Of a DNA stretch of 64,000 nt, positions 8,103 to 50,622 are shown one piece after another. A program made the position numbers and the translations under genes. The stretch's first letter is position 1. Each line of letters opens with the position of its first letter. A model generated the notes under the pieces. It did not search any database. It saw only the letters and a program-made list of their open reading frames with translations, and had not been told where the DNA came from. Origin of the DNA: Gemmatimonadaceae bacterium (GTDB lineage Bacteria; Gemmatimonadota; Gemmatimonadetes; Gemmatimonadales; Gemmatimonadaceae); the NCBI GenBank assembly GCA_045803545.1, contig JBJMOW010000005.1:1280001-1344000 (forward strand), in the 5' to 3' direction.

Positions 8103-8115
8103 TGAAGCGAAAAGA

Positions 8116-8145
8116 AAAACGCCGGGGATTTCTCCCCGGCGTTTT
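8116..8145. terminator. Bidirectional intrinsic terminator
   Basis: AAAACGCCGGGGA-tttc-TCCCCGGCGTTTT between convergent genes. Confidence 0.8.
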
Positions 8146-8165
8146 CGATACCTATCCCAACACGC

Positions 8166-9014: not shown

Positions 9015-9208
9015 AAACGCATTGCTCCTGATGTTGAATGCGCCGCTGGCGCGGCGCGGCTTGTACCTATCAACACGAAGCATCGGGCGAAACGAAACGC
9101 GTTTCGACATGGGTCGGAGCCGACCCAAAATTCAGCCGATCAACGGTGGACGTTTGGCTAGCGAACTGTGAATTGTCGATTTGTGATTACGGCTGATACG
9201 GGCCGGGA

Positions 9209-9436
9209 TCAGCTCTCGAGGAAGGTCTCGGCCTCGTCGTTGTCCAGGGCAATGGAGTCGAGGTGCGGAAGTATGTCGTACTTCCAGTGAATGCCGACCA
9301 TCTTGTCGAGCAGTCGCTCGAACTCGGCAGGGGAGAGCGAAGTGCAGAAGCGAGCGATACGGCGCGCGATGTGTAGTCGCGCCGCCGCCAGTGTCTCTGC
9401 TTTATGACTGCTAATTCGGTCTGGTTGATTCGCCAA
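9209..9436 (-). CDS. Small hypothetical protein
   Basis: 75-aa ORF with protein-like composition; TTG start uncertain. Confidence 0.5.
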   Translation of the reverse strand: MANQPDRISSHKAETLAAARLHIARRIARFCTSLSPAEFERLLDKMVGIHWKYDILPHLDSIALDNDEAETFLES

Positions 9437-9540
9437 CGAAGTGCCGCGAGAAACAATCCCGCCATCCGCCGCAAGAATCGTCCCGCAAACTTTCGGAAAA
9501 TCCGTTTTATGGACTTCGCTAACCGGTCACGCTTGAGGTG

Positions 9541-9726
9541 CTACTCGTTGGGATCGCGCTCGAATAGCGCCTGCTTCTTGGTCCAGCGATGCATTTGGTG
9601 ACACGCCGGGCACTCGACCGGATCCATCTCTTCGATCGGCGAAAGCTCGAACGTCTGGGGATCCATCGAGTAGCCTGTATAAATCATTTTGCCGGTGTTC
9701 GGGCACTTGATCAGAATCCGGTTCAC
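9541..9726 (-). CDS. Small zinc-ribbon-like protein
   Basis: IKCPNTG...CPAC..MHRW; purine-rich RBS before GTG. Confidence 0.7.
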   Translation of the reverse strand: MNRILIKCPNTGKMIYTGYSMDPQTFELSPIEEMDPVECPACHQMHRWTKKQALFERDPNE

Positions 9727-9854
9727 TCTCTCGCCTCAGCAGACGCACTGGGTTGACTTCTGCAAAGAGGATTCCGTCACCTAGGGTCTAGGCCTTATGT
9801 CCTCGCTACGGTTTTCTAATGCCCGCCTCTAGCGGAAGGCCGTGCGCGGAGACG

Positions 9855-10565
9855 CTACCAGGCGCACTTGACCTGGGCTTTGACCGCCATCGTCTGGGGC
9901 GCCAAACCCATCTCGTTCGACACCACGAAATGATATATGCCCGCGGTCGGCAGGTCGTAGTCGAGAGTATTTTCCGATCCTCGGAACGTCTCCCAGGACG
10001 ACTGTGCGATCGCGGCCGGGTTGGCGTGCCAGAAGACGTATTCGTCGTCAGTCAGCAGGAATATCTCGACGTTGCCACCGAAACCGTTGACGCCCCTGGT
10101 CGAGCCAACGAGCCGGCACTTTTGATCTGTCTGCGGTAGCTCAAAGGAATACTGCAAGGCGTCGTGCGCCGGCACCGTCGTCGCTTTTACGTCCGCGACC
10201 TTGATGGAGATCAGGGAAGCCTTCGTCGTGGCAGCTGGCGCCGCCGCCATCGCGGGCGAAAGAGTCATCGTCGGAGCGTCCGCTACTGGGACGGACTCTT
10301 CGACGTCAGGGACGAATCGCGCTGTACGTGGCGGTTCGGCGCTCGCCAGCCCCGGAGTTCCCTGGATCAGAAACCAGGTGACTGCGTAGACGATAATCAG
10401 TCCCGCTGCGACACCAACGCGAGCTTTGTTGTCGGCAGGATCGCTCGTTGGAGCGCCGTCGTGCGAGACGTCCCAGCCGCACTGTTTGCACTCCTTGTCC
10501 TCCGGCTGCATTGGCTCGCCGCAGAAATTGCAAAACTTCTTTTTTATCTTGATCGGCATCTTCAT
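9855..10565 (-). CDS. Hypothetical membrane protein: zinc ribbon, TM helix, beta-sandwich domain
   Basis: CNFC...CKQC, one hydrophobic helix, Ala/Pro linker, C-terminal GIYHFVVSN; start uncertain (10565-10622). Confidence 0.7.
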   Translation of the reverse strand: MKMPIKIKKKFCNFCGEPMQPEDKECKQCGWDVSHDGAPTSDPADNKARVGVAAGLIIVYAVTWFLIQGTPGLASAEPPRTARFVPDVEESVPVADAPTMTLSPAMAAAPAATTKASLISIKVADVKATTVPAHDALQYSFELPQTDQKCRLVGSTRGVNGFGGNVEIFLLTDDEYVFWHANPAAIAQSSWETFRGSENTLDYDLPTAGIYHFVVSNEMGLAPQTMAVKAQVKCAW

Positions 10566-10674
10566 CGTTTTCTCTGGACTGTCCCTACCGATGAAGACGA
10601 GCGATTGGGAATCCGGGAACATGGGGATTCCCTGCCTCTAGCACCAAACACACGTGTCGCCGTAGAATGGCGCC

Positions 10675-19733: not shown

Positions 19734-20519
19734 CTAGATGTGAAGCCCCATTAATTCCTCGAGCTTTTCAAACCTGCTGCGGGAAACCTTGAGCCTCTGT
19801 CCGCCCTTCAGCACCACCGCGTAATCCCCACCGGGATTGCGGATCAAGGTCTCGACGAGATCGAGTCGCACTATTGCGGAGCGATGGATGCGGAAGAATT
19901 TCCCGGGATCGAGGCGGTCCTCGAGCGTCTGCATCCGCTCCCGTATCAGGTAGCGCTTGTCGGCGACAAACAGCTCCGCGTACGGTCCGCTGGCGATCAT
20001 ATAGTCGATCTGCTTGACCGGCACCACACGCACCTGGCCTTTCATCTCTACCGCGATGCGCTCGAGGTACTGGGTCTTCGGCGCCGCTTTAGCTTCGGAG
20101 CCTCCGAGTAGGCTGCGCAATTCGTCGGAAAGCTTCGAGACCTGATTGAGCTCGATCATCTTCCGCGCTCGACGAAATGCCTTCTCGAATCGCTCGTCAT
20201 CGAAGGGCTTGACCAGGTAATCGAGCGCGGCAAGATCGAATGCGACGACAGCGTAGTCGTACGCCGTCGTGAAGATCACCGGTGGCATATCGTCGACGCC
20301 GATCTCACGCACGACGTCGAGTCCGGTTTTGCCAGGCATTTGGATGTCGAGGAAAACGAGATCGGGTTTCAGCTCACGGATCGCTTCGACCGCAGTCAGG
20401 CCATTGTCGGCGGTGCCAACGATCTCGACACCATTCTCGTGGGCGAGCAAATCCTCCAGTCGCTGGCGACTGAGCTTTTCGTCTTCGGCGATCAGTACAC
20501 GCAGTGGCTTGGCGCTCAC
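19734..20519 (-). CDS. LytTR-family DNA-binding response regulator
   Basis: REC domain (AEDE, FLDIQMP, TTAYD, DYLVKPF) plus LytTR domain (FFRIHRSAIV, LKVSR). Confidence 0.95.
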   Translation of the reverse strand: MSAKPLRVLIAEDEKLSRQRLEDLLAHENGVEIVGTADNGLTAVEAIRELKPDLVFLDIQMPGKTGLDVVREIGVDDMPPVIFTTAYDYAVVAFDLAALDYLVKPFDDERFEKAFRRARKMIELNQVSKLSDELRSLLGGSEAKAAPKTQYLERIAVEMKGQVRVVPVKQIDYMIASGPYAELFVADKRYLIRERMQTLEDRLDPGKFFRIHRSAIVRLDLVETLIRNPGGDYAVVLKGGQRLKVSRSRFEKLEELMGLHI

Positions 20520-21757
20520 TGACTGGCCTGAGATTTAGTCACCAGCACCGTGCGGAGCTCCGCGGAAGTGCGATACGGAACCGCGATTCTCGCGATGGTA
20601 CCGCCGCCGGCCGCTTCCGTGAGAGCGAGGCTCTGCTCACTACCATACATCTGCTCCAGACGTTGCCGAGTGTTGGCGAGTCCGACTCCCGCGTCATCGA
20701 GTCGAGCGATTTTCGCAGGGCCGGGACCGTTGTCGGTGACAGTGAGCACGAGTCGTTCCCCTTCGACTCGAGCACGAATCCCGATTTTGCCCGCTGCCGC
20801 GATTTTGTCAACGCCGTGCTTGACCGCGTTCTCCACTAGCGGCTGCAGTATCAAACTGGGCACCATTGCATTGCGCGCGTCATCCTCGATCTGCATGTCG
20901 ATCTCCAGCTTGCCCTGAAACCTGACCTGCATGATCTCGAGGTAGCGCTCGAGGAAAGAGATTTCCTGCGATAGCGGCACTTCGTGATCGGTACCGCCTT
21001 CGAGGGTATACCGCAGCAGCTCGCTGAGGCGGGCGATCATGCGGCGTACCCCACGCGGATCGCGCTCGACCAGTGACGACACCGCGTTCAACGTGTTGAA
21101 CAGAAAGTGCGGATTCAGCTGCGCGTTGAGAGCCGACAACTTCGCTTCGGCGAGCTGCGTTTGGAGTTGAGCCGTTTCGGCCGCCATCTGCGCGGCGGCT
21201 TTCTCGTGGGCGCGGAATCGACGCGAATATTCGCGCGCGAAACCGGCGGCCAGGATGCCGCAGAATATCAGGAAGTGATTGAGGATCATCGGGCCGTGGA
21301 AGAAATTCAGCGGCGAGCCACCCCCGAGTCCGCGCCGAACCCCGCCTCCACGTTCTCCACCGCCGCCAAAACGCCCGACACCACCCGGCGCTCCTCTGCC
21401 GCGATCCGAACCCTGGAGGGTCTGTATCAGCGATGAGTTGATCAGGTCGACAAAGAAGGCAATGACAAGTCCGATTGCGATGAGCGCCAGGATCCTTGTC
21501 CATGGTGGCGACTCGATAACGTTGAACCGGCTGACAAGCCAGAAGAGTGGCGGTGTCAGCAGCGCCCACAGATACATCTGCTGGAATGCCAGGGCGATCG
21601 GCACCGCGGTTGGTACCGCGGTGAAGCCTTCGCGCTGATCGGCGAGTCGATTGGCGGCGGTTAATATCGCCAACAGAGTCCAGAACGCGAAGATCCCGAA
21701 AATCTCTACGCCACTAAGTCGGAACCGTTTCTCTGCGGCTGGGGATGCTTCGCTCAT
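20516..21757 (-). CDS. LytS/YehU-type sensor histidine kinase
   Basis: Four TM segments, LNAQLNPHFLFNTLN, LQPLVENAVKHG, DNGPG, GVGLAN. Confidence 0.95.
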   Translation of the reverse strand: MSEASPAAEKRFRLSGVEIFGIFAFWTLLAILTAANRLADQREGFTAVPTAVPIALAFQQMYLWALLTPPLFWLVSRFNVIESPPWTRILALIAIGLVIAFFVDLINSSLIQTLQGSDRGRGAPGGVGRFGGGGERGGGVRRGLGGGSPLNFFHGPMILNHFLIFCGILAAGFAREYSRRFRAHEKAAAQMAAETAQLQTQLAEAKLSALNAQLNPHFLFNTLNAVSSLVERDPRGVRRMIARLSELLRYTLEGGTDHEVPLSQEISFLERYLEIMQVRFQGKLEIDMQIEDDARNAMVPSLILQPLVENAVKHGVDKIAAAGKIGIRARVEGERLVLTVTDNGPGPAKIARLDDAGVGLANTRQRLEQMYGSEQSLALTEAAGGGTIARIAVPYRTSAELRTVLVTKSQASQ

Positions 21758-21998: not shown

Positions 21999-22334
21999 AT
22001 GTCACTCGCCTTCAAGACCACCGACGCTCCTTCGCACCAGCCGCCCAGACTCTCCACGCTCGAAGCGACGCTGCGCGGCTATTTCGTCGCCGCATTCACC
22101 GGCGCCGACAAGCCCGATTGGGCGTTCCGCGCAGCTGTCTGGAACGTGACTGACGACCTCAAGATGATCGGCGACAAACCGGAGGACGTTATCAAGCGGA
22201 TCAAGTACATCGCCGCCATCCCCGTCGCGTTTCACTACCGAGTCGGCTACCGCGAGAGTCAGTCGAGGCTGACTCACACTGTATCGAAGGCGACTGCGAT
22301 CGCGATCGACCGATACTTCGCGGCCAACGTCTAG
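21999..22334 (+). CDS. Small helical hypothetical protein (paralog of 5196)
   Basis: FRAAV...DDLKMIGDKPEDVIKRIK...AIDRYF. Confidence 0.65.
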   Translation: MSLAFKTTDAPSHQPPRLSTLEATLRGYFVAAFTGADKPDWAFRAAVWNVTDDLKMIGDKPEDVIKRIKYIAAIPVAFHYRVGYRESQSRLTHTVSKATAIAIDRYFAANV

Positions 22335-23173
22335 TTGCCGTTGAGAGCAGCCGCGACGTCGCTCAGGGTCCGGAATCCACGCTGCTGCTCGCGAGTGAAC
22401 TCTATCCGAAACTCCTCCTCGACGGCCATCATCAGCACGACCAGATCGAGAGAGTCGATACCCATCTCGAGGAGCGAGGCGTCAAAGCGGATTTCGGATT
22501 CGTCGCGACTGAGCGAGTCTGCGGCGAGGCGACGCAGGCGTTGCTCGACTGAATCGGGTGCGACGCGATGCGGACCGACCACCTGCTCGAAACAATGGGC
22601 GTACTGCTTGAGTCCGTTGTACACCTCTTCGTCGACGCGCTTGAAACGATCCATCATCTCGTCGACGACAGCCTGACCATTCGCCGCGGCGTAGGCGTCG
22701 AGCCGGTCTTTCACCCAGCGAATGTGTCCGGTTTCCTCCTCGATCAACTGCTGAAGCGTGCGCTTGACCTCGGGATGGGTGCCTGGCCAGGACAGATGCG
22801 CGCGGAAATGTCGAACTACTCGCCGCTCGAACACCTGCGTCAGCGCCAACACCTCGAGCAGGTTCGTGGGATTACCGACTGCCGCGTGATATCGCGCTTG
22901 ATATGTCTCTCTTACCTTCTTTGGAGTGCCACCGACTCTCTGAATGCACTGGGTCCAGGCCCACGCGTGCCCCGCCTCTTCCGCGCAGTGCTCGGTGAGC
23001 CGCACACGCAAATCGTCGTCATCGGTCTCACGCGCGAGCCGTCCCATCAGCAGTCCGCCGGCAAGCTCGGACTCGCGATAGTAGCTGAGTAGCCACAGCT
23101 CGTTCTCACTGATCTCCAGCTTGCCCGGCGTCGGTGGCTCGTATGAATGTGCGACAGCAATTGAGCTAGCCAT
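22331..23173 (-). CDS. Ferritin-like diiron-carboxylate domain fused to a C-terminal acyl carrier protein
   Basis: YYRESE / EEAGH / QVFE / EETGH ligand pattern; ACP motif MGIDSLDLVVLMMAVEEEFRIEF. Confidence 0.85.
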   Translation of the reverse strand: MASSIAVAHSYEPPTPGKLEISENELWLLSYYRESELAGGLLMGRLARETDDDDLRVRLTEHCAEEAGHAWAWTQCIQRVGGTPKKVRETYQARYHAAVGNPTNLLEVLALTQVFERRVVRHFRAHLSWPGTHPEVKRTLQQLIEEETGHIRWVKDRLDAYAAANGQAVVDEMMDRFKRVDEEVYNGLKQYAHCFEQVVGPHRVAPDSVEQRLRRLAADSLSRDESEIRFDASLLEMGIDSLDLVVLMMAVEEEFRIEFTREQQRGFRTLSDVAAALNGN

Positions 23174-23891
23174 TGCTCATCTCCTCCATCAAATGCTCCG
23201 TCGGCGAAAGGCCGCAGAGCTGTCGGATCTTCCGGTTCATCGCCATGATGGCGTCGAAATCATTTTCCTCGGCGTGCGGAATTTCGACAACGTCGCTGCC
23301 GTAATGCCGAAAGTTTTCAGCGGCGCTGATGATCTCCGGCACAATCGATCGATCAGCGTCTATTCGCTTCCTGAGCAATGCACCAGCGCCGGCGCTGTGA
23401 CGAAGCTCGTCCCTGCTCATGTAGTCCATCAATTCGGCAAGCACCGGCTCGCGCGTTTGCGCAGCAATCCGCCTGAAGAAATGCGCGGCGAACAGCTCGG
23501 AGCACATGAAGTGGGTCAGGTACGTTACCGCCGAATCGCGATCGTACTGGATCGAGCTGGTGCGACCGCGCGCCTCGACAAGGTCGCGCACACTCGACTT
23601 GCTGCTCTGATCTCCAACGGTATCCAGATATCGCCGCAGCGCGGTGTAGTGCTTGAGCCCCTCGTAAAGCTCCAGACTTAGAATCGCGGTGGCGTCGACG
23701 TCGTCCCACAACATGAGCATCAGGCGCGGTGCAAACGTCGGCAGATAGCCCTCGATAATCGCCGCATCGCGCAGACCGGCGTGAATCTCGGCTTCGTCGC
23801 GGGCGATCCGGTGGTCGATCGCTCCCCAGCGGATGCTGTCGATCGACCATGCCGACGATTCGGCAGCACGCAGATGCTCCTCGTAGATCAA
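23166..23891 (-). CDS. Ferritin-like diiron protein (acyl-ACP desaturase/AurF-like fold)
   Basis: IIEG / EGLKH / CSE / DELRH pattern with N-terminal W...I.W. TTG start at 23891 inferred from overlap with the upstream TGA. Confidence 0.8.
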   Translation of the reverse strand: MIYEEHLRAAESSAWSIDSIRWGAIDHRIARDEAEIHAGLRDAAIIEGYLPTFAPRLMLMLWDDVDATAILSLELYEGLKHYTALRRYLDTVGDQSSKSSVRDLVEARGRTSSIQYDRDSAVTYLTHFMCSELFAAHFFRRIAAQTREPVLAELMDYMSRDELRHSAGAGALLRKRIDADRSIVPEIISAAENFRHYGSDVVEIPHAEENDFDAIMAMNRKIRQLCGLSPTEHLMEEMSNG

Positions 23892-24754
23892 TGTCCCCTC
23901 TCTGCAACGGCGAGCGTCTGCAAGCCAACGGTGTCGTTCGTCGTCCGCACACTGGTGAAACCAGCAGAGGTCAGAAGCGCTCTCAGCTGTTGAGTTGAGC
24001 GATAGTGCGTATGAAGCTCGGCGAGCTCTCGCGCGAGATAGTCGGAAACCCGATCGCGGTTCATCGCCGAGGTTATGAAACGGCCGCCAGGCCGCAGCGC
24101 GCACAACGCGCGGCGATAGAAATCGTACAGGATCCCGTCCGCGAGAAATTCTCCGAAGCCGAGTGACACGATGACGTCAACACCGGTTGGGATAGTGCCA
24201 GGTTTCAGCGCATCGCCACAGCTGAACTCGAAGGACTGATGTCCGTCGATGAGCTTGCGCGACAACGCCAACGGCTCCGGATCGATGTCGATACCCATGA
24301 ACGTCGTGCGCTCATAGCGACCGGGATCGCTGCGCCGCAGCGTCTCCGCGACGTCGAACAGATCGCGCGCGATGCCGCACGGAATCGAAACGACGGTGAG
24401 CTCCCGATCATCGTCAATCGCCTCGATCGCACGCATGATCTCCAGGCGGGAATGGAGGAAGCGACTACGCATCGAGCGCGAGCCTTTGAGCTTGAGCAGC
24501 AAGCGATCGAGCATCCGGCCAACGCCAAAGCGTCCGCTGGGCTCATTTCTGTAGATGTGATCAGCGAAGCGGAAGCTACCCGAGTTTCTGATTCCCTCTC
24601 GCGCGAGATCACTGGTCGTCAGCAAGGCGTAGACGGGGAGCAGGTGATACTTCCCCTCCGAGACCAATCGGCGTGGAATCGAGGCCGACCGGCGCGTGCG
24701 ATTGGGCAGCGCCGCGATTGGCGTCGCAGTCAGTTCATGCTGTGGCCGAGACAT
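23888..24754 (-). CDS. Class I SAM-dependent methyltransferase (resembles the YnbC C-terminal/Methyltransf_20 type)
   Basis: SGS...DHIYRNEPSG...GRMLDR, SIPCG.ARD, GIDID, GDAL, LRPGGRF. Confidence 0.85.
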   Translation of the reverse strand: MSRPQHELTATPIAALPNRTRRSASIPRRLVSEGKYHLLPVYALLTTSDLAREGIRNSGSFRFADHIYRNEPSGRFGVGRMLDRLLLKLKGSRSMRSRFLHSRLEIMRAIEAIDDDRELTVVSIPCGIARDLFDVAETLRRSDPGRYERTTFMGIDIDPEPLALSRKLIDGHQSFEFSCGDALKPGTIPTGVDVIVSLGFGEFLADGILYDFYRRALCALRPGGRFITSAMNRDRVSDYLARELAELHTHYRSTQQLRALLTSAGFTSVRTTNDTVGLQTLAVAERGH

Positions 24755-25865
24755 CGTTCCTCACTGTCGAAGGCCAATTCCGTTCATCGGCACCGTGTTG
24801 ATTCACGATAGCGATCACCCAGCGCTCCCAGCCGAACGCAACGCAGCCGGTGTTGGCAGGCTGGCCGGAGTCGAGCTTGATGCGGAATGCCTTGCCGAAG
24901 TGATCGTGATGGTTGTTGAACGATGCGGCGGCGATCGTGCGCCCGTCGTCGCTGGCGCGCAGCCTCAGCTCGTATTTGAGCGGCAGTATCTGCTGCATCA
25001 ACATTCTTCCGCGCGACTCGGCGGTGAAAAACGGATCGTTTGCAATCTCGATAGCGCCATCGAGTCCCAGCTCTTTCGTCCAGGCGTGGACGCGCATCAT
25101 CAACTCGCCTCGCACCATTTCAACTGTTTGTGGTGTTCCCACGGTGATTATCTCCCGCATCGTGAACTCACGCAGTCTCTCAACCGCAGTGGGTGATTGC
25201 TCCTCGAACTCGTTCCGGAAGCACCGGCCGAGCGCAGTCACCATGGAGCCAGATGCAGTAACCGTGCAGTCAGAGAGAGTTGGATAGTGGTGGTAGCAAA
25301 CAGCGGGGGGTCTAGCGTTCTCACCATTGCGAACGAGTTTCTCGGGAAATGCCGATAGAAACCCCGCGCGATCGAGGGATGACAGCGAGATGTCGTCCGG
25401 GAAGGCGAGTCGGGTAGCGCCGAGGTGATCGGCCCAGTCGCAAACAGTGGCATCGAGCCAATCACGCAGTTCGGCGACTGCTCCGTGCAACACCAGGGCC
25501 CCCTGACCAGTCAGCTCGAGATCACCCTTTGCGATCAGCCTCCCGACCGGGGAGCCGGACGTCTCCGTGCGAAGAGTGCCGCGCCGGCGAGTGGTCGACC
25601 TTCTGGTGATCGACTCGACACCAGTGAAAACCCGGGCGATCGTCTCGATCGACCTGAAATTGGCGAGAACGATCTGCGAATCGGGAATCTTGCGGTCGAG
25701 GGTGGATTGCAGGAACGCGATCAGCTCGAGGATCTTGAGCGAGTCGATGACCTGGTCCTCGAACAGTCGCGTTTCAGCGGTGATCGAAGGCGCGATCTGA
25801 CCATCCGCCAGCTGTTCGCGGACGAAGCATAAAAGGCGCTGCTCGAGCTCGTGGGCGGTCAACAT
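24735..25865 (-). CDS. ACP fused to a SerRS-like amino acid:[carrier protein] ligase (class II aaRS catalytic core)
   Basis: ACP VIDSLKILELIAFL; PPAVCYHHY, motif 2 CFRNE...RLREFTMRE, SFNNH.DHFG, motif 3 TGCVAFGWERW; no tRNA-binding arm. ATG 25865 overlaps the upstream stop. Confidence 0.88.
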   Translation of the reverse strand: MLTAHELEQRLLCFVREQLADGQIAPSITAETRLFEDQVIDSLKILELIAFLQSTLDRKIPDSQIVLANFRSIETIARVFTGVESITRRSTTRRRGTLRTETSGSPVGRLIAKGDLELTGQGALVLHGAVAELRDWLDATVCDWADHLGATRLAFPDDISLSSLDRAGFLSAFPEKLVRNGENARPPAVCYHHYPTLSDCTVTASGSMVTALGRCFRNEFEEQSPTAVERLREFTMREIITVGTPQTVEMVRGELMMRVHAWTKELGLDGAIEIANDPFFTAESRGRMLMQQILPLKYELRLRASDDGRTIAAASFNNHHDHFGKAFRIKLDSGQPANTGCVAFGWERWVIAIVNQHGADERNWPSTVRNDVSATA

Positions 25866-26980
25866 TGACGTGTCCCCCAGTTGCTCTCGAGGCAGTACTT
25901 CACGACTCGCGGATAGAAATCGAGCGACGGCTGCGGCGCGATGCCGTTGCCCGCCAGGGTGGCCGTTGCCCGATCGGTCTCGAAAACCTTGGGATGCGCG
26001 AGCTGATACGCGAACGTACGAATCGATCTCGTTGCTTCGCGCAGCACTGGATTCCCTGTTTCCTCGACGGATTTGACGAACAACTCGTACGTATCGAGAT
26101 CGACGATCAACGGTTTCTCGACTGCTCGCTTGCGCCACTGGGGCCGGTACGTCGCGATCGCGCTCATCGTCTCGTCGATGATTTCGCCGAGCGTATTGCT
26201 CGATTCGCGGCCCGCCGCGAGGTGGAAGACCCCGGGACGCGCTGCGTGCTCCGCCAGGTGCAGCACAGCCTCGGCGACGAAGTCAGAGCTGACGATGTCG
26301 ACCGGCTCGTTCGGATCGCCGGGAATCATCGGCGCCAGACCGCCATAGAGGAGCCTGACCGCGTGGTGGATGGTATTGAAGTGCGTCACTCTACCGGTAC
26401 CGGAATCTCCGATGACTGTGCTCAACCGCACCAGAATCAGCGGAAGCTCCGACATCGAGGCGCTGATCATGTCCTCCATCTCGGCTTTCGATTCCTCATA
26501 CGAGTTGACGAAGCCGAGTCCTGCGTCGCCGAAATCGGACTCGGCGAAATCGCCACACCGCTTGCCGCTGACATAGACGGTGCTCAGGAACGCGCCGCAC
26601 TCGAGCGCTGGACAGTGCCGCGCGAAATCGAGAACGTTGCGACTGCCGTCGACATTAGCCCTGCGCGCAGCAGTGATCGGAAGTGTGAATGACGTCGAGC
26701 CAGCGGAGTGAATGATGTGGGTCGTGTCGCGTTGCAGATGAACCAGAGCATCAGCGCGAACGCCAAGGTCGGGCCCGGCGCCGATGTCGCCTTCGACGAC
26801 ATCAACGGTCGCGCTGATGTCTGCATAAGCGAGCAATGAGCGCACGCGCTCGATAGGATCACTGTCGCTGCGGCGGACGAGGACTTTTACGGCGAGACCT
26901 TCCCGTGCCGCGAGTCGACGCAGCAGGTCGCTGCCAATCGCGCCCGTTGCACCGGTGAGCAGAATTGACGCGCGTCGCAT
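25859..26980 (-). CDS. Thioester reductase / fatty acyl reductase-type extended SDR
   Basis: LLTGATGAIG, IIHSAG, NVDG, STVYVSG, YEESK, RLSTVIGDS. Confidence 0.88.
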   Translation of the reverse strand: MRRASILLTGATGAIGSDLLRRLAAREGLAVKVLVRRSDSDPIERVRSLLAYADISATVDVVEGDIGAGPDLGVRADALVHLQRDTTHIIHSAGSTSFTLPITAARRANVDGSRNVLDFARHCPALECGAFLSTVYVSGKRCGDFAESDFGDAGLGFVNSYEESKAEMEDMISASMSELPLILVRLSTVIGDSGTGRVTHFNTIHHAVRLLYGGLAPMIPGDPNEPVDIVSSDFVAEAVLHLAEHAARPGVFHLAAGRESSNTLGEIIDETMSAIATYRPQWRKRAVEKPLIVDLDTYELFVKSVEETGNPVLREATRSIRTFAYQLAHPKVFETDRATATLAGNGIAPQPSLDFYPRVVKYCLESNWGTRQC

Positions 26981-27966
26981 CAGTGCTGCACCACCATGCT
27001 CGCCCAGTTCGATCCGTACCCGAACGTGAACAGCAGCATGTAGTCGCCTTTCTTCACCAGCCCGGCGTCGGTTGCGTGCCGCAGGTTGAGCAGGTTGTCC
27101 GACGCGATGGTGTGGCCGACTTTGGAGATGTTAGCGGTGTAAATCCGGTCAGCGGGGCATTTGATCAGCCGGCCCAGTATCTCCCAGCTGCGCAGCGACA
27201 CGTTGTGTGGAATGACTGCTGCGATGTCGTCGATGGTCAGGCCCGCATTCTTCAGCGTGCGCTCGATCAGCGCCGCCGCAGTCGGGAAATACGCGGCAAT
27301 AATCTCGTTCTCTATGGTGTCGCTATCCCACAGCGCGCCTTTCGTCACATGACCGCACTCGACGATTCTGTTTCGCTGGGCGCCGCGTCGCACCAGTGCG
27401 GCGCACGCACCGTCCGAGACGAGATTGTAGGCAAGGTCCCGCGGCTGGTCAGGCGGGAACTTGTCGGCGCTGACGCAGAGGATCGCGTTGAGATTGTCTT
27501 CGGTCGAGATCAATGCGCGAGCCATGCGTAGCGCGGCAAATATCGATGCACAGCCGACCTGGTTGACGCCAACGACCGCGGCGTTCGGAAGATCGAGACG
27601 GGTCTGCAGCACCGACCCCGGGTATTTGAAAAGGTCATGGACGTTGCCGAGGTCGAGTACCGATCCCGGACGGGAGACGCCGTTGCCGTTCCAAAGCGTA
27701 GAGCTGGAGTTGAGCGCGGCGGCGTAGAGAATCATGCCGATGTCGTCGCGATCCACATCGCTTTCTGCGAGCAGTTTCTCGGCGGCGGCGACGGCCATGT
27801 CGAGATTCGACTCCTCACCCGCCAGATGGACGGTCTCGAATCCGAACGAGCGCAGCGTCAGTCCCGATCGATTAAGGAGCCCGCGCGCACCGAGCTCCGC
27901 GACCGTAGCAACGCCCGGCGGCAGGTACTCAGCGATCGATTCGATTCCGATTTGGCGCTTGCTCAT
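26980..27966 (-). CDS. KAS III (FabH)-like ketosynthase/acyltransferase, non-canonical
   Basis: VGCAS catalytic Cys, SDGACA, PHNVS, GHTIASD (FabH Asn position is His), FGYG..W. Confidence 0.88.
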   Translation of the reverse strand: MSKRQIGIESIAEYLPPGVATVAELGARGLLNRSGLTLRSFGFETVHLAGEESNLDMAVAAAEKLLAESDVDRDDIGMILYAAALNSSSTLWNGNGVSRPGSVLDLGNVHDLFKYPGSVLQTRLDLPNAAVVGVNQVGCASIFAALRMARALISTEDNLNAILCVSADKFPPDQPRDLAYNLVSDGACAALVRRGAQRNRIVECGHVTKGALWDSDTIENEIIAAYFPTAAALIERTLKNAGLTIDDIAAVIPHNVSLRSWEILGRLIKCPADRIYTANISKVGHTIASDNLLNLRHATDAGLVKKGDYMLLFTFGYGSNWASMVVQH

Positions 27967-27972
27967 GGCGAG

Positions 27973-27978
27973 ATTCTA
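27973..27978 (-). promoter_or_regulatory. Putative -10 box of a leaderless promoter for the biosynthetic operon
   Basis: TAGAAT 6 nt upstream of ATG 27966, with no SD sequence. Confidence 0.55.
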
Positions 27979-28029
27979 CCCTGCGCTTCAGTACGGCGGG
28001 ATACGTACAGTGACGTAGCTGGGATGCAG

Positions 28030-28578
28030 TTAAGCCTTCATATGAAGGGTTGGGAACGAGCTTCCGAATTGTTTACTGAATAATGAACGGATCAAACCTC
28101 CTTTCTTCGATCGTTCCGCTCCTTTGAACCGCACGACGTGCCCAGGCAGCGGCCAGCCGAGATTTCCAATTGCAACGCGGTTCCTGTGGATTCCGGCGAT
28201 CATCTCGATCTCGCCGCATTTCACTACGTGCTCGCTTCCCCGCCGACTACTGAAGGACCGCGTCTGTACAAAGCAGCGCTCGAGAATCTCCGTCGCTTGC
28301 TGGTGAGTGATGCCAACGAGCAGCCATCGCCGCCGCACCCAGAGCGCGATCACGATCAACGCGACGTCGAAGATGACTATTGAGATCGGCAGCACTCGCG
28401 CACCAGGGCCGCTGAGCGAGCCACGCTGAGTGAAACCATGGATGATTGTCGCCATTACAAAGATGCCGTTGACGACCACGAGGGAGCTTCCCTTCCATAG
28501 TGTAGGCGACGGGCGACGCGCGATGATCAGCGCCCACGCCACGAGCACCAGCGCATACGCGCCAAGCCACGGCAGCAT
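28030..28578 (-). CDS. Hypothetical membrane protein
   Basis: Three hydrophobic segments followed by a soluble tail. Confidence 0.65.
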   Translation of the reverse strand: MLPWLGAYALVLVAWALIIARRPSPTLWKGSSLVVVNGIFVMATIIHGFTQRGSLSGPGARVLPISIVIFDVALIVIALWVRRRWLLVGITHQQATEILERCFVQTRSFSSRRGSEHVVKCGEIEMIAGIHRNRVAIGNLGWPLPGHVVRFKGAERSKKGGLIRSLFSKQFGSSFPTLHMKA

Positions 28579-28605
28579 GGAGTTGTGGGAGAGCTTAGGT
28601 CGCGG

Positions 28606-29040
28606 CTACTCCTCGAGCAGCGCTTTCAGATTCTCGACGACGCGCTTGCCTTCCTGCTCGTTGAGCTTCTCGAACATCGACGCTTTCATTTTTCCGAGCG
28701 CGTTGGTCGGCACTTCGTAGTCGACGTTGAGACTGAGCCTGGTTCTGGGCCCCGCTCCGTCAGCCTTATAGGTGAAGGTGCTTTTGGCGCCAGTTGTGGT
28801 TTTGTAGACGAACTCTTTTGCGGGCACGAAGCGAACGGTTTCGGCCTTTCCGGTCAGCTCGACGCCGGCGATGTTGTAGACCCAATCCCAGCTGGTGCCG
28901 GGCGTTCTCACATCACCTTTGACGTTGGTCACCGACTTGAGCGGGCCGATGAATGCCGGGTGATTGGTGACGTCGACGATGTACTCCATCAGGGAGTCGG
29001 GCGTGCACTTTACTTCGACGGACTGGGCGACTCTGGTCAT
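28606..29040 (-). CDS. SRPBCC/START-like (polyketide cyclase-like) protein
   Basis: GGAG RBS before ATG 29040; SVEV...EYIVDVTNHP.F...TRLSLNVDY...LKALLE pattern. Confidence 0.85.
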   Translation of the reverse strand: MTRVAQSVEVKCTPDSLMEYIVDVTNHPAFIGPLKSVTNVKGDVRTPGTSWDWVYNIAGVELTGKAETVRFVPAKEFVYKTTTGAKSTFTYKADGAGPRTRLSLNVDYEVPTNALGKMKASMFEKLNEQEGKRVVENLKALLEE

Positions 29041-29082
29041 TTTGACTCTCCGTTGGAATTCTTGTGCGCTGAGGATTGAGCC

Positions 29083-29228
29083 AACCAAAGGTAGGCAGGG
29101 TGCAGAGATTGCTCAGCGGTCAGTGTGCAGCTAATGAACGTGGCGTTTGTTGCGAAGCGTGGCCAGGAATGCCGATTCAAACGCTGCACACTCTGCACTG
29201 CGCATCTGCAACCTGTCTGCCTTTGGTT
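29083..29228. repeat. Hairpin element, family B copy 2
   Basis: AACCAAAGGTAGGCAGGGTGCAGA ... TCTGCAACCTGTCTGCCTTTGGTT. Confidence 0.8.
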
Positions 29229-29266: not shown

Positions 29267-31456
29267 TTACTGGATGTCGTACTGCGGCTCGGGCCTGTTC
29301 ATCAGGTACTTGTCGAACCAGCCAATAATGTGCCGCAGGCGTTCGACACGGTGCCACGGCTTCCCTGAACGTGAAAGTTCATGAGTCTCGTCGGGGAAAC
29401 GAACCATCACCGTCGGCTTGTGCAAATACTTCAGGGCGCGGAACATCTGCTCGCCGCCCATAACCGGCGGCGTGCGCATGTCAGCATCGCCTTCGACAAA
29501 CATGATCGGCGTGGTGACGTTGGTGACATAGGTGATTGGCGAAAGATCAGCGAACTGCTTCTGGTTCTCCCACGGCGGCCCGGAGAACCACGTCGGATGA
29601 AAGAGAGTGAAATCCGCAGTGTACCAGAAGCCGGTCCAATCTGCGATCGATCGTTGTGAGACGGCGGCCGCGAAGCGGTGGGTGTGGCCAACAATCCAGT
29701 TGGTGAGAACGCCGCCACCGCTGCCACCGGTGGCGCCCATTTTCGTCGAATCGACGTATCCGCGCTTCACTACCTCGTCGACGCCGGCCATTAGATCCTT
29801 GTAGTCGTCGCCGGGATAGTTGTGCTGAATGATGTTCGCGAATTCCTGGCCGTACGACGTGCTGCCGCGCGGATTCACGTAAAGGACGACGTAACCCTTG
29901 GTCGCCATCCAATCGAATTCGTGAGTGAAAGTGTAGCCGAAAGCGGCGTTCGGCCCGCCGTGGATCTCGAGAATCAGCGGATACTTTCTCGAGGCACTGA
30001 AACCCGGCGGCTTGAGAATCCACCCTTGAATGCGTTTTCCGTCGAAGCTGTTGTAGGTGAACTCTTCCGGCGCCGGAATGTCGAGGGTGCTGAACAGTGC
30101 GTCGTTGACGTGAGTGATTTGGCGGGAGGCGATGGTGCGGGAGGCGGGAGGCGAGAGGCGGGAGGCGTCAATCACGAACAGATCGCCGATGTTCACCGGG
30201 GTGGACACCAGAGTCACGAGCTTTGAACCGCTCTTGTCGGCTGCATATGACACGACTTCCTCGTCACCGGTCGTCACCGCGCTGGATGTGCCACCATCGA
30301 TTGGGAAGCGGCGCAAGTTCGCGCGGCCGTTTTCGGTGGTGACGACGATCACACTGCGGCTGTCGCTGCTCCAGATAATTCCGCCGCCGCTGCCGGCACG
30401 CGGCGGATGTTGATCGCCGGTAAGGCCGCCTTCGACGTCGTAGTCGTAGTTCGTGCTGAGATTGACAGGCTTCGCTCCCGGAGTCGCATCCATGACGTAG
30501 ACGTCGCGCTCGTCGTAGAAGCGGAGTGGTTTGCCGTTCTCGTTGCCGGTGAACGCGATTTTCTTTCCATCACGAGAGATCGCAATTGAGCCCACGGCGC
30601 CATCGAGACTCGCGACCTTTGTCGGCGTACCGCCGCTGGCTGAAACCGAGAACAGCTCGTCGGCAGCCGTTTCGTAGTACGGCTCGAGATGGCGATCGGA
30701 CGTGTAATAGAGACGCGATCCGTCGGTTGACCAGACGGGCTCGCTCTCGTCGAACGTCCCATTGGTGATCTGCTTCGCACTCGGCTGTCCACCGCTCGCG
30801 GTGAATGATGCGGGCACAGTCCAGATGTGCGAATGCGCGGTGACGTCGGTGTAACCGGCGCCGTTCCAACGGTACTGCGCCCGCGTGATCACCCGAACAT
30901 CGCTGACGTGCTTCTTCGTGGTGTCGGTCGACTTCTTCGCCGAATCCGATCCAGCGGTGTCGGGAACCGATGTAAACGCAATCGTGCGACCGTCGGGCGA
31001 CCACACCGGCGACGACGCGCCTTTTGGCGCATTGGTGAGCATCCTCGCTTCGCCACCATCCATTGTGATCAGATAGATCTGCGGCGGCCGAGGCTTGCCA
31101 TCGACCGGGTCTGGCGTGCGCACGAAGGCTAGCTGGCGTCCATCCGGCGACCAGCGCGGTCCCCGGTCTCCGCGGCCCGACGTCAACGGCCTCGGCGCTG
31201 CGCTTCCATCCGCGGGCACCATGAAGATCTGGGTGTCGTAGCGATCCTTGTCGGCGTCAGCTGTTACGCGTACGAACGCGACCTGCGAGCCGTTCGGAGA
31301 AATCTGTGGATCAGCGGCCCAGACAAACTTGAACAAATCGGTGTCCGAGATGGGCCGCCGCGTCTGTGCGCTGACGTCGGCCGGCCCCATGATGAGAGTT
31401 ATGGCGGCGAGGCCGAGCAGCAGCGGAGTCTTACCCACCAATATCGCGGACCTCAT
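29267..31456 (-). CDS. S9 family serine peptidase with PD40/WD40-like propeller
   Basis: WSPDG repeats, IHGGP, NPRGSTSYG, GGSGGG, D.RTP, ETHEL. Confidence 0.92.
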   Translation of the reverse strand: MRSAILVGKTPLLLGLAAITLIMGPADVSAQTRRPISDTDLFKFVWAADPQISPNGSQVAFVRVTADADKDRYDTQIFMVPADGSAAPRPLTSGRGDRGPRWSPDGRQLAFVRTPDPVDGKPRPPQIYLITMDGGEARMLTNAPKGASSPVWSPDGRTIAFTSVPDTAGSDSAKKSTDTTKKHVSDVRVITRAQYRWNGAGYTDVTAHSHIWTVPASFTASGGQPSAKQITNGTFDESEPVWSTDGSRLYYTSDRHLEPYYETAADELFSVSASGGTPTKVASLDGAVGSIAISRDGKKIAFTGNENGKPLRFYDERDVYVMDATPGAKPVNLSTNYDYDVEGGLTGDQHPPRAGSGGGIIWSSDSRSVIVVTTENGRANLRRFPIDGGTSSAVTTGDEEVVSYAADKSGSKLVTLVSTPVNIGDLFVIDASRLSPPASRTIASRQITHVNDALFSTLDIPAPEEFTYNSFDGKRIQGWILKPPGFSASRKYPLILEIHGGPNAAFGYTFTHEFDWMATKGYVVLYVNPRGSTSYGQEFANIIQHNYPGDDYKDLMAGVDEVVKRGYVDSTKMGATGGSGGGVLTNWIVGHTHRFAAAVSQRSIADWTGFWYTADFTLFHPTWFSGPPWENQKQFADLSPITYVTNVTTPIMFVEGDADMRTPPVMGGEQMFRALKYLHKPTVMVRFPDETHELSRSGKPWHRVERLRHIIGWFDKYLMNRPEPQYDIQ

Positions 31457-50605: not shown

Positions 50606-50622
50606 CGGAGACGCGATTGCGA

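Follow-up and report, generated by a model that had tools for sequence, protein, structure and literature searches.

Background

KAS III-like acyltransferases that do not condense, such as CerJ, ChlB3 and AfcL/AfcO, are marked by a Cys/His/Asp pattern. CerJ and the ChlB-type enzymes use carrier-bound acyl groups to make C-O and C-S bonds. For AfcL and AfcO, Cys/His/Asp triads have been described: AfcL (2025) forms an amide between the acyl-S-enzyme and H2N-Lys-S-CoA, free lysine not being used. Ferritin-like diiron oxidases include N-oxygenases that introduce nitroso, nitro and nitronate groups into carrier-bound substrates; in enteromycin-class pathways, according to later work citing He and Ryan (2021), a diiron oxygenase is paired with a nitronate O-methyltransferase on carrier-bound glycine. 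The DUF3419 annotation, finally, is found on a putative betaine-lipid synthase, itself identified by homology to BTA1.

No characterized cluster with the architecture reported below was found in the literature open to search. The originally claimed novelty is somewhat weakened by the published logic of afc (AFC-BC11), where AfcL makes an amide with an aminoacyl thioester.

Organization of the operon

ORF calling on the window (the whole stretch of 64,000 nucleotides analyzed, from an uncultured soil bacterium) locates six minus-strand genes at 22331-27966, each overlapping the next. Gene 1 (26980..27966, 328 aa), coding for a KAS III-like acyltransferase, ends at the A in 26980, which is common to its TGA and to the ATG of gene 2 (25859..26980, 373 aa), a thioester/fatty-acyl reductase-type SDR. 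Gene 3 (24735..25865, 376 aa, counted from the ATG at 25865) is an ACP1-ligase fusion and overlaps the TGA of gene 2 (25861-25859) by 7 nt, while 20 nt are shared between its stop, ending at 24735, and gene 4 (23888..24754, 288 aa, ATG at 24754), a class I SAM-dependent methyltransferase. Gene 5 (23166..23891, 241 aa), a stearoyl-ACP-desaturase/R2lox-like ferritin-fold dimetal protein, starts with a TTG at 23891 and overlaps the preceding TGA (23890-23888) by 4 nt; gene 6 (ATG at 23173) in turn overlaps the end of gene 5 (TAG 23168-23166) by 8 nt. Gene 6 (22331..23173, 280 aa) encodes a ferritin-like diiron domain fused to ACP2. For gene 5, the unusual TTG start finds support in the length of its homologues (all 120 listed have 230-249 aa, with 241 in most cases) and in the N-terminus MIYEEHL, which two relatives share with it.

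All five junctions overlap as originally described. The six gene identities are likewise upheld by Pfam, NCBIfam and PDB sequence matches, and may, like the catalytic residues and the co-conservation reported below, be regarded as established; no protein of the six scores above a curated NCBIfam cut-off. Both ACPs carry the expected DSL serine (S42 in gene 3, S241 in gene 6).

Pfam was run on 40 window ORFs (10, and another 30 out of a set of 53 of at least 100 aa): none of the 40 belongs to the NRPS, PKS, PPTase or acyl-AMP ligase families, in keeping with the original description of an operon without NRPS/PKS and without PPTase or acyl ligase nearby. An enzyme loading a fatty acid on ACP2 is found neither in the operon nor among these 40 ORFs.

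Two accessory minus-strand genes lie upstream. The first (28030..28578), 64 bp from gene 1, encodes a predicted membrane protein of 182 aa, for which no Pfam or NCBIfam family was found; the second (28606..29088) encodes a 160 aa SRPBCC protein (Pfam Polyketide_cyc2, 3.7e-12).

Conservation of the locus

The gene order is seen again in 80 related loci, 79 of them labelled Gemmatimonadota: a recurrence which places the arrangement far beyond chance. Together the six genes probably make up a single biosynthetic operon, conserved in soil Gemmatimonadaceae, for an uncharacterized pathway.

Two architectures are present. Type A (33 loci) has the same architecture as the window. Among loci with room, the methyltransferase is found in 29 out of 29, the ligase in 26 out of 26, the reductase in 25 out of 26, the KAS in 24 out of 25 and the ferritin-like gene in 27 out of 29. 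Type B (47 loci) features a free-standing ACP, and contains neither the methyltransferase (0 of 42 loci) nor a second ACP; additional genes code for a betaine-lipid-synthase-like protein matching DUF3419 (2.2e-53), a GNAT-like protein and an MMPL exporter resembling MmpL3 (2.1e-71). Here too co-occurrence is high in loci with room: ligase 37/37, reductase 35/35, KAS 27/27, free-standing ACP 36/37, ferritin-like 38/41, DUF3419 33/37, GNAT-like 31/35, MMPL 23/25. Since type B lacks both ACP2 and the methyltransferase, these two fall outside the conserved core, and types A and B must draw on different acyl donors. The original scheme, in which the acyl chain is held on ACP2, therefore cannot cover the whole family.

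Of the accessory genes, that for the 182 aa membrane protein is a neighbor of the cluster in just 8 of the 22 type A loci where there is room for it. The SRPBCC gene flanks the cluster in 15 of 17 type A loci with room and in none of 21 type B loci; its strand varies (13 minus and 8 plus among all matches).

Core enzymes and carrier domains

The N-terminal part of gene 3, ACP1 (25596..25865, about residues 1-90, phosphopantetheine serine S42), matches PP-binding at 0.0018 over residues 26-78 and, weakly, the aminoacyl carrier protein 1 (4h2s_C, 7.5e-4). Of 28 fused ligases, 25 contain a [D/N/G]S[L/M/I] motif. The C-terminal part (24735..25541, about residues 109-376) is a SerRS-derived amino acid:carrier-protein ligase domain: it matches the NF005479 amino acid--[ACP] ligase model (2.8e-50; 171 bits, the cut-off being 357) and, over residues 186-370, the PDB structure of Bll0957 (3mey, 1.9e-34). 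Its Cys/Glu/Cys and motif residues line up with those of Bll0957, and at least 95% of 66 sequences keep each of C190, R217, E238, C341 and R348.

Gene 2 is best described by the Pfam fatty-acyl-reductase domain NAD_binding_4 (1.2e-39) and by PRK07201 (3.2e-32); the TIGR01746 thioester-reductase domain follows (3.4e-28, 98.9 bits, cut-off 213). The TGxxGxxG motif (T9, G10, G13, G16), S133, Y161 and K165 are each at least 95% conserved in 60 sequences. Gene 4 matches Methyltransf_20 (9.7e-11) and PDB 3ocj (2e-06), while no NCBIfam family was found for it.

Gene 1 is recognized by ACP_syn_III_C (2.6e-18) and ACP_syn_III (2.9e-07). By sequence, true FabH enzymes are its nearest relatives of known structure (7e-14 to 2e-11), but its scores with the NCBIfam FabH models (75-91 bits) are far under the cut-offs (249-315). 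In the alignment to FabH structures, C139 and H254 are equivalent to FabH Cys112 and His244, and the FGxG loop is also conserved; GHTIASD, however, aligns with GNTSAAS, so that His285 takes the position of FabH Asn274, with Asp290 five residues on. Across 60 aligned sequences, each of C139, H254, H285 and D290 is shared by at least 95%. H285 and D290 equal His296 and Asp301 of ChlB3, the former also His295 of CerJ, equivalences derived from aligned ranges. Together with the chemistry of AfcL, His285/Asp290 lend real support to the earlier guess that this KAS III homologue forms amides and not C-C bonds; because His254 is kept, gene 1 could still condense.

Proposed pathway and alternatives

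The pathway probably couples an amino acid to a fatty chain on stand-alone carrier proteins, without peptide or polyketide synthetases. Tentatively, the favored course is that an aminoacyl-S-ACP1 is N-acylated, tailored and reductively released as an N-acyl amino aldehyde or alcohol lipid. The chemical steps, the amino acid and the product, as we infer them, would be the following. The ligase domain would activate a small amino acid with ATP and load it onto the phosphopantetheine of its own fused ACP1, as suggested by the homology to Bll0957 and by the conserved Zn and ATP residues. C139 of gene 1 would accept an acyl group, supplied by ACP2 in type A or by a housekeeping acyl-ACP or acyl-CoA in type B, and the enzyme, by analogy with AfcL, may transfer this group to the free amine, generating N-acyl-aminoacyl-S-ACP1. 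Gene 5 and the ACP2-tethered gene 6 would oxidize the carrier-bound chain, by desaturation or hydroxylation; gene 4 would methylate an N or O atom, and gene 2 would release the thioester as aldehyde or alcohol. In type B the alcohol may be extended by the betaine-lipid-synthase-like enzyme, and then exported by the MMPL pump.

The lipid character of the product, already part of the original prediction, is supported by the type B MMPL and DUF3419 proteins, the NAD_binding_4 reductase, the fold of gene 5 and the AcpP-like nature of ACP2. Gene 5 matches DesA2 (PDB 1za0) at 6.4e-07; its model (pLDDT 91) aligns best, by VIA-align, with the castor stearoyl-ACP desaturase (1oq4_A, Z 18.9, rmsd 3.5, 239 aligned residues), followed by R2lox (Z 17.5), AurF (13.8) and CmlI (13.5). 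At least 95% of 80 sequences retain E47, E74, E77, H81, E132, E162 and H165, the first metal motif being E74-x2-E77-x3-H81, not ExxH. ACP2 (22331..22558, residues 206-280 of gene 6 plus the stop, serine S241) is a fatty-acid-type carrier domain, which matches PP-binding (2.1e-11) and is 33-35% identical to solved AcpP structures; no similarity between ACP1 and ACP2 was found by BLASTP. PP-binding is present in all 20 type A rows of the gene 6-family alignment and in none of the 22 other rows, and a DSL or NSL motif in 26 of 27 ferritin-ACP fusions.

The substrate of gene 2 could equally be a plain fatty acyl thioester. This would fit a different, rather unlikely course, in which gene 2 is a fatty acyl-ACP reductase that reduces the chain borne by ACP2 (by a housekeeping ACP in type B), gene 5 desaturates the chain, gene 6 handles the aldehyde, for example by deformylation as in cyanobacterial AAR-ADO, and gene 1 transfers the aminoacyl group of ACP1 to the alcohol, or to some other acceptor, so that an amino acid ester lipid results. 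The best matches of gene 2 and the C-O and C-S bonds formed by CerJ and ChlB-type enzymes speak for it, and the fusion to ACP2 would bring aldehyde formation beside gene 6. The diiron domain of the latter (22589..23173, residues 1-195) carries E36, E66, H69, E116, E147 and H150 in the order E / ExxH / E / ExxH, at least 95% conserved in 73 sequences. Ferritin-like proteins with aldehyde-deformylating activity top the VIA-align rows of its model (pLDDT 86.6; Z 16.8 and 16.1), where 3ez0 is also found, and the AAR-ADO complex is at rank 49 of the Foldseek list. Yet these rows lie within about 1 Z of bacterioferritins and Dps proteins, helical bundles having a high background: the predicted model of gene 6 gives generic fold matches. 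Besides, deformylation gives the amino acid no explained role. Of the two carriers, only ACP1 occurs in type A and type B alike, and the reductase gene is invariably its neighbor; release from ACP1, as in the N-acyl amino lipid course, is therefore favored.

Improbable, in turn, is that the diiron proteins oxidize the amine of aminoacyl-S-ACP1 to a hydroxylamine, nitroso, nitro or nitronate group, which the methyltransferase caps before the reductase releases a small diffusible aldehyde or alcohol. N-oxygenation logic is that of the pvf, ham and mgo signal clusters, and SRPBCC neighbors are known there (pvfD, mgoD), as in type A. The ligase-ACP and the free reductase would stand in for an NRPS A-T-R protein; the logic is also that of a glycine-derived nitronate pathway, with the N-oxygenases and the enteromycin-class enzymes providing precedents. 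The gene 6 family shows weak Pfam matches to AurF in 20 of 42 members (best 3.9e-06), as well as to Ferritin (32) and COQ7 (28), and a Tistrella mobilis plasmid locus brings together genes for a diiron oxygenase, a small ACP-like protein, an amino acid:carrier-protein-ligase-like protein, a nitronate monooxygenase and a methyltransferase. However, the Tistrella diiron oxygenase matches gene 6 at an E of 0.02 only and gene 5 not at all, and the similarity of its methyltransferase to gene 4 is generic. Gene 5 is structurally nearer to the acyl-ACP desaturase than to AurF and CmlI, and N-oxygenation needs no KAS III-like acyltransferase, AcpP-like ACP2 or MMPL exporter. In the sequence and fold comparisons made here, no result points to halogenation.

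Least probable of all is that gene 1, true to the canonical priming role of KAS III, is a ketosynthase, joining the aminoacyl starter on ACP1 to malonyl-ACP2 (malonyl-AcpP in type B) into a 4-amino-3-oxoacyl chain, then elongated or cyclized and released by the reductase: the FabH-like Cys and His, the FGxG loop, the FabH relatives and a dedicated AcpP-like ACP2 able to carry malonyl would agree with it, but the His285/Asp290 pattern is that of non-condensing relatives, FabH family scores are low, and the operon has no ketoreductase, dehydratase or malonyl transferase.

Relatives of gene 1 in other bacteria also speak for the favored course. The KAS III of the Burkholderia afc locus, whose gene adjoins a ferritin-like gene, is 28% identical to gene 1 over 316 aa (E 2e-25) and shares with it the PHN...GH....D motifs; against this, it is likely to be AfcO, rather than the assayed AfcL. 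The 294 aa protein encoded after the afc carrier protein showed no similarity to gene 1. In Bacillus mycoides plasmids, gene-1-like KAS III genes are located near a pair formed by an ACP and an amino acid:carrier-protein ligase.

Organization and genomic context of the operon

The six genes represent a real, conserved and uncharacterised pathway, which varies a known carrier-protein logic and is not a new kind of system. They are found on the minus strand, at window 22331-27966, and are numbered in order of transcription; the arrangement originally predicted, with each gene overlapping the next, is confirmed by the reading frames at all junctions. At 26980 a single A serves both the gene 1 stop and the gene 2 start. 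The overlaps at the other junctions are 7 nt between genes 2 and 3 (ATG at 25865), 20 nt between genes 3 and 4 (start at 24754), 4 nt between genes 4 and 5, where the TTG at 23891 runs into the gene 4 TGA, and 8 nt between genes 5 and 6 (start at 23173). The TTG start is supported by the agreement between homologue lengths (230-249 aa, mostly 241, in 120 out of the 120 homologues listed) and by the N-terminus MIYEEHL, which recurs in two relatives. Family matches and conserved active-site residues show that the six products had been correctly identified: a KAS III-like enzyme (gene 1), a reductase (gene 2), an aa:CP (amino acid:carrier protein) ligase fused to a carrier, ACP1 (gene 3), a methyltransferase (gene 4) and two ferritin-fold proteins, the second fused to ACP2 (genes 5 and 6). 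The two ACPs are unrelated at the BLASTP level; each has the anticipated DSL serine.

G+C content is about 60% across the whole window and composition is unbroken at the operon, whose closest protein relatives carry the label Gemmatimonadaceae. The host genome (3.7 Mb, 6 contigs, 93% complete) contains one PPTase-family match outside the operon, within a 243-aa open frame on contig 2 (174834-175034); phosphopantetheinylation in trans, as originally suggested, is therefore plausible. Promoter and terminator scanning gave counts close to the shuffle expectation. All 14 sequencing runs listed for 22331-29088 are DNA runs, 13 of them labelled soil metagenome and one bearing a coded organism label.

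Conservation and the two architectures

Gene 3 finds matches in 19 of 41 related genomes; in the draw from the window's own genus, the ligase is matched in 13 of 24. An alignment scan with gene 5, including one genome per species, yielded 89 relatives; the 80 best were retained, 79 of these loci being labelled Gemmatimonadota and one Acidobacteria. All six proteins were mapped on the fetched contigs of related genomes, and two conserved architectures emerged, type A (33 loci), similar to the window, and type B (47 loci), featuring a free ACP. The gene order is repeated across these 80 loci.

Per-gene counts are restricted to loci with enough contig to show the gene. The ligase is found in 26/26 type A and 37/37 type B loci, the reductase in 25/26 and 35/35, the KAS III-like gene in 24/25 and 27/27, the ferritin-like gene in 27/29 and 38/41, respectively. 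The methyltransferase (29/29 in type A, 0/42 in type B), an SRPBCC neighbour (15/17 and 0/21) and a 182-aa membrane protein (8/22 and 0/24) occur in type A, while the free-standing ACP (0/26 in type A, 36/37 in type B), DUF3419 (0/23 and 33/37), a 395-aa GNAT-like protein (0/19 and 31/35) and MMPL (0/13 and 23/25) occur in type B. Of the 33 ferritin-like matches in type A, 27 extend into the ACP domain; the ferritin-like protein of type B is without ACP. From these counts, the core therefore consists of the KAS III-like enzyme, the reductase, ACP1, the ligase and both ferritin-fold proteins, to which type A adds ACP2 and the methyltransferase. Two type A loci, L047 and L051, are rearranged.

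Type B is a sister operon found within the same bacterial family; its order is KAS III-like, reductase, free ACP, ligase, two ferritin-fold proteins, DUF3419 (betaine-lipid-synthase-like), 395-aa GNAT-like protein and MmpL3-like exporter, with 35-50% identity to the window's proteins. An example is the locus L013, positions 3056-12283; L052 and L054-L100 are others of this type. The type B operon may be the better target for product discovery.

A two-component pair, a LytS-type histidine kinase with its LytTR response regulator, is encoded on the same strand, 574 bp downstream of gene 6 (window 19734-21757). The pair also follows the cluster in one related locus, L024, and was left out of the cluster because the other type A loci show no such matches downstream. 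In five type A loci, the genes downstream of the cluster vary in size and order.

The distribution of the operon is patchy. In a phylum sample, which scored six candidates per genome and may undercount, the gene 5 profile matched 10 out of 401 genomes, all within the window's own family: besides the window's own genome, 9 of the 93 sampled members of this family are matched, and none of the 307 genomes from other families. The Acidobacteria-labelled MAG is grouped in another phylum, where the cluster is present in that genome only, among 401 sampled; one further genome of this second sample features a lone, weak gene-5-like match. The unidentified aminolipid of Gemmatimonas groenlandica was considered as a possible product, and no tie to the operon was found; no named isolate is among the sources of the 80 loci.

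The KAS III-like enzyme

Both KAS III domains are found by Pfam in gene 1. The scores of curated FabH families are not reached: 75.1 bits against a cut-off of 292 for TIGR00747, 82.2 against 249 for PRK09352 and 91.4 against 315 for PRK06840. Residue conservation was evaluated on alignments of script-picked ORFs, whose starts were chosen by nearness to the BLAST match, with a threshold of at least 95% of sequences; C139, H254, H285 and D290 are kept at this level in 60 aligned sequences. HMMER alignments to FabH structures place GHTIASD of gene 1 opposite GNTSAAS of FabH, so that the FabH asparagine corresponds to a histidine. The aligned ranges (gene 1 226-326 with CerJ 236-336, and 232-326 with ChlB3 242-337) locate H285, by arithmetic on the ranges and not by superposition, on ChlB3 His296/CerJ His295, and D290 on the corresponding aspartates (Asp301 in ChlB3).

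Cys113/His296/Asp301 of ChlB3 and His295 of CerJ are described in PMC9573744 as the triad of KAS III-like acyltransferases; CerJ and ChlB3/ChlB6 pass acyl groups from a carrier to O, S or N nucleophiles. Like these enzymes, gene 1 is predicted to combine a thiolase fold with a cysteine and a His-x4-Asp replacing the FabH asparagine; unlike CerJ and ChlB3, to which its similarity is low (8e-11 and 1e-06, respectively), it keeps the FabH-type His254. As judged from sequence, gene 1 carries the triad of acyl-transferring KAS III-like enzymes, and is a predicted acyltransferase.

A recently deposited 358-aa '3-oxoacyl-ACP synthase-3', PDB 9z38_A, features GHCGASD, with the GH....D motif of gene 1; the N-terminal region is also common to gene 1, but the PHN histidine is not present. 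A literature search on PDB 9z38 found no relevant paper.

Reductase, carrier-ligase fusion and methyltransferase

Gene 2 matches NAD_binding_4 (PF07993) at 1.2e-39, with 136.5 bits against a cut-off of 20.1, followed by thioester-reductase and PRK07201; TIGR01746 reaches 98.9 bits, under its cut-off of 213. T9, G10, G13 and G16 (TGxxGxxG), S133, Y161 and K165 are kept in at least 95% of 60 sequences. The domain, the TGxxGxxG motif and the Ser/Thr-Tyr-Lys residues of a thioester or fatty acyl reductase SDR are all found.

In gene 3, residues 186-370 match Bll0957 (PDB 3mey) at 1.9e-34, while the match to the SerRS 3w3s (9.8e-17) is confined to the C-terminal core of the latter; Pfam reports tRNA-synt_2b at 9.3e-07. 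The protein features a methanogen-type SerRS catalytic core, without a tRNA-binding domain. The score with NF005479 (2.8e-50) is 171.1 bits against a cut-off of 357, and covers positions 133-315 only of the 318 in the profile: the ligase is a divergent relative, not an equivalog. C190, E238 and C341 align with positions 151 and 196 and with the TGCVAFG cysteine of Bll0957, which are presumably zinc ligands, and are kept, together with R217 and R348, in at least 95% of 66 sequences; Cys/Glu/Cys zinc positions and the residues of class II motifs 2 and 3 are, in other words, both in place. A dedicated carrier is found beside the ligase, as the fused ACP1 with S42 in the window and as a free ACP in 36/37 type B loci. 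The N-terminal domain of gene 3 weakly matches a Bradyrhizobium aminoacyl carrier protein. Gene 4 belongs to Methyltransf_20, an uncharacterised family, and is a class I methyltransferase.

The two ferritin-fold proteins

The reactions known for ferritin-like diiron oxidases comprise C-H oxygenation, desaturation, halogenation and several kinds of N-oxygenation. In gene 6, a ferritin-like domain is joined to an AcpP-like carrier; E36, E66, H69, E116, E147 and H150 make up a full diiron set, kept in at least 95% of 73 sequences, and the modelled E / ExxH / E / ExxH residues are predicted to lie in a helical bundle. Gene 5, similar in sequence to M. tuberculosis DesA2 (6.4e-07), keeps E47, E132, E162, H165 and E74-x2-E77-x3-H81 in at least 95% of 80 sequences; the last motif (residues 74-81, window 23649-23672) replaces the first ExxH throughout the family. 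PF03405 (soluble acyl-ACP desaturases) does not match the window's gene 5, while 17/42 family members match it weakly (best 1.1e-4). For gene 6, the score with PF11583 (AurF/CmlI-type N-oxygenases) is 17.1 bits, under the cut-off of 29.6, with weak matches in 20/42 family members.

For the AlphaFold models, 42 alignment rows were taken from the 60 and 78 usable sequences; both models are confident, with pLDDT 86.6 (gene 6) and 91.0 (gene 5). Foldseek rows are weak (E at least 1e-3) for both, and include ACPs, bacterioferritins, PaaA and 3ez0 for gene 6, R2-like ligand-binding oxidases, RNR R2 and stearoyl-ACP desaturase for gene 5. When the models were compared by VIA-align against 48,161 chains, the best match of gene 5 was castor stearoyl-ACP desaturase (Z 18.9, rmsd 3.5, 239/241 residues aligned), followed by R2lox (17.5), an ADO-active ferritin-like protein (17.2) and RNR R2 (17.1), with DesA2 (16.1), AurF (13.8) and CmlI (13.5) at lower scores. 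On these models, gene 5 may be described as desaturase/R2-like, and gene 6 as a generic ferritin-like oxidase. Genes 5 and 6 were rejected as close paralogues (hhalign probability 24%). Complex prediction for gene 5 with residues 1-200 of gene 6 scored 0.00, which is neither for nor against a heterodimer.

Comparison with known systems

The first description of aa:CP ligases reportedly dates from 2010; their biological role is given as unknown in a 2022 review. Like Bll0957 (PDB 3mey/4h2s) and Agrobacterium Atu2573, gene 3 is a truncated methanogen-type SerRS core with an adjoining carrier protein. Unlike in Bll0957 systems, the carrier of type A is fused to the ligase N-terminus, and the partners in the operon are a KAS III-like enzyme, a reductase and two diiron proteins. 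The ligase is thus part of a compact, strongly co-conserved set, in which every partner (KAS III-like enzyme, reductase, two diiron proteins) can be assayed, and the operon offers a direct experimental handle on these unexplained ligases.

No description of the operon's gene set was found in open-access papers and bioRxiv, in agreement with the original claim that no characterised cluster is alike; the claim needs to be tempered, since a related logic is found in the AFC-BC11 (afc) cluster of the Burkholderia cepacia complex, where stand-alone enzymes work around free carriers, with no condensation domains (Zhong et al., JACS 2025, PMC12186527). The same paper reports Cys/His/Asp triads in AfcL and AfcO, and the transfer of the chain by AfcL to H2N-Lys-S-CoA, free lysine not being accepted; two further proteins, the KAS III-like AfcO and the acyl-ACP-desaturase-like AfcN, are essential, with no role assigned. 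The cluster contains the acyl-ACP-desaturase-like AfcN and AfcD plus an O-methyltransferase, and its product is an N-acyl tetrapeptide. Unlike the operon, afc features an adenylation domain, a fatty acyl-AMP ligase and the use of Lys-S-CoA, and has neither an aa:CP ligase nor a thioester reductase.

Between gene 1 and the KAS III of the afc locus, identity is 28% over 316 aa (E 2e-25), with PHN...GH....D in both; gene 5 shares about 29% identity over 174 aa with an acyl-ACP desaturase gene which we infer to be AfcD. In Burkholderia sp. FXe9 the order is ACP, two hypothetical genes, ferritin-like, 3-oxoacyl-ACP synthase and PLP decarboxylase; the locus, found in Burkholderia megaplasmid records, further holds a citrate synthase gene, one for a methyltransferase and two divergent desaturase genes, and fits the published afc cluster. 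From gene order and the descriptions in the paper, the gene 1 match is probably AfcO, and its ferritin-like neighbour AfcN. AfcN was rejected as a relative of either ferritin-fold protein (hhalign probability 16% with gene 5, 0.2% with gene 6).

The similarity to columbamide-type clusters, also part of the original prediction, is partial. In those clusters the ferritin-like dimetal enzymes are halogenases of the CylC family; the action of ferritin-like dimetal enzymes on ACP-bound fatty chains and a reductive or amide-forming end would be shared. The operon is without the fatty acyl-AMP ligase and the type I PKS/NRPS modules which, together with an ACP, are described for those clusters in PMC8406957.

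Proposed pathway and alternatives

The reading tentatively preferred here is that an amino acid loaded on ACP1 is N-acylated by gene 1, the chain being tailored and the product released reductively. The ligase would load the amino acid on ACP1; gene 1 would N-acylate aminoacyl-S-ACP1; the two ferritin-fold proteins, and in type A also the methyltransferase, would tailor the chain; the reductase would free the N-acyl-aminoacyl thioester as an aldehyde or alcohol. This is favoured because ACP1 is the only carrier found in both types, with a reductase gene always adjoining, because gene 1 has the putative acyltransferase triad, and because such an enzyme has been shown to need an aminoacyl thioester as its amine nucleophile. 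The type B betaine-lipid-synthase-like protein and MmpL3-like exporter, as predicted from their sequences, support a lipid alcohol; betaine-lipid synthases alkylate a hydroxyl group. The weak points are a missing acyl-loading enzyme, the absence of ACP2 from type B, the FabH-type His254 kept in gene 1 and the fact that the afc relative is AfcO, not the assayed AfcL. In the chemistry originally proposed, the KAS III step is now better founded, by the triad and the AfcL precedent; the scheme as a whole may be considered plausible.

A fatty-alcohol or ester route, where the reductase would act on a fatty chain and gene 6 would perhaps handle the aldehyde, is unlikely. Among the chains ranked by VIA-align for gene 6, the first are aldehyde-deformylating proteins of the ferritin-like type (Z 16.8, 16.1 and 15.1) and 3ez0, within about 1 Z of bacterioferritins and Dps proteins; gene 2 is an SDR and not an AAR homologue, unlike the reductase of the cyanobacterial AAR-ADO alkane pathway.

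N-oxygenation, as in pvf/ham or in the nitronate pathway, is improbable. The glycine-derived nitronate pathway is said to have been reported by He and Ryan in 2021; an SRPBCC-type neighbour is presumably also typical of pvf/ham/mgo clusters. The operon would have in common with all of them a carrier-tethered amino acid, a ferritin-like diiron oxidase acting on it and methyltransferase or reductive release; it differs by the KAS III-like enzyme in its core, while those systems rely on an NRPS A-T(-R) protein and AurF-type N-oxygenases. Aminoacyl-primed Claisen condensation is likewise improbable: the Cys-His-Asn triad of condensing FabH is not found in gene 1, where Cys139 and His254 are present and His285, invariant in the family, occupies the Asn position.

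A more specific form of the preferred N-acylation reading, in which the purpose of SerRS-derived aa:CP ligases is to provide a KAS III-like amide synthase with an aminoacyl thioester as amine nucleophile, leading to a new class of Gemmatimonadaceae lipoamino alcohols, is possible, if doubtful. It would imply a ribosome-, NRPS- and GNAT-independent route to lipoamino acids, with reductive release as last step; lipoamino alcohols would be methylated in type A, while type B lipids would bear a homoserine-ether (betaine-lipid-like) head group and be exported by the MMPL pump. Such a coupling would bring the NRPS-free amide formation of AFC-BC11 to a second phylum, identify the missing source of aminoacyl thioester, and provide a first specialised lipid pathway for Gemmatimonadaceae, a family common in soil, with very few cultured members.

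Ligase loci elsewhere and other features of the window

Ligase homologues are found in 117 plasmid records from many genera, with varying neighbours; a Streptomyces ligase locus resembles an aminomalonyl-ACP-type cassette. On Tistrella mobilis pTM2 (L102, locus positions 8015-12325) five genes in a row encode a diiron oxygenase, a small ACP-like protein, an aa:CP-ligase-like protein, a nitronate monooxygenase and a methyltransferase, in what looks like glycine-nitronate logic with an aaRS-like loader. As a lead for the operon it was discarded: its diiron oxygenase and methyltransferase resemble genes 6, 5 and 4 only marginally or generically (E 0.02 for the diiron oxygenase).

A Bacillus mycoides plasmid (L103, NZ_CP031072.1, 258922-277803), from a culturable host, features three KAS III-like genes akin to gene 1, together with an ACP and a homologue of the aa:CP ligase; the locus, which also encodes a BtrH-N-domain protein, an acyl-CoA dehydrogenase and a xanthine-dehydrogenase-like set, is another orphan aminoacyl-carrier cluster. 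Its KAS III genes are among the best plasmid matches of gene 1 (2e-26); the pairing of a gene-1-type KAS III with an aa:CP ligase therefore recurs outside Gemmatimonadota. The reductase, gene 5 and gene 6 have no match at this plasmid locus.

Within the window, a 929-aa ORF (43319-46108) matches no Pfam family at E 1e-5. Just upstream of the operon, at 29267-34158, two adjacent genes of the S9 prolyl-oligopeptidase family encode 729 and 900 aa, the latter with DUF3108 at the C-terminus; peptidases (M3, M13, M1, M8) are abundant across the window. At 48530-52072, an FMO-like flavin monooxygenase adjoins two paralogous DUF4440/SnoaL-cupin fusions (49685-50605 and 51218-52072).
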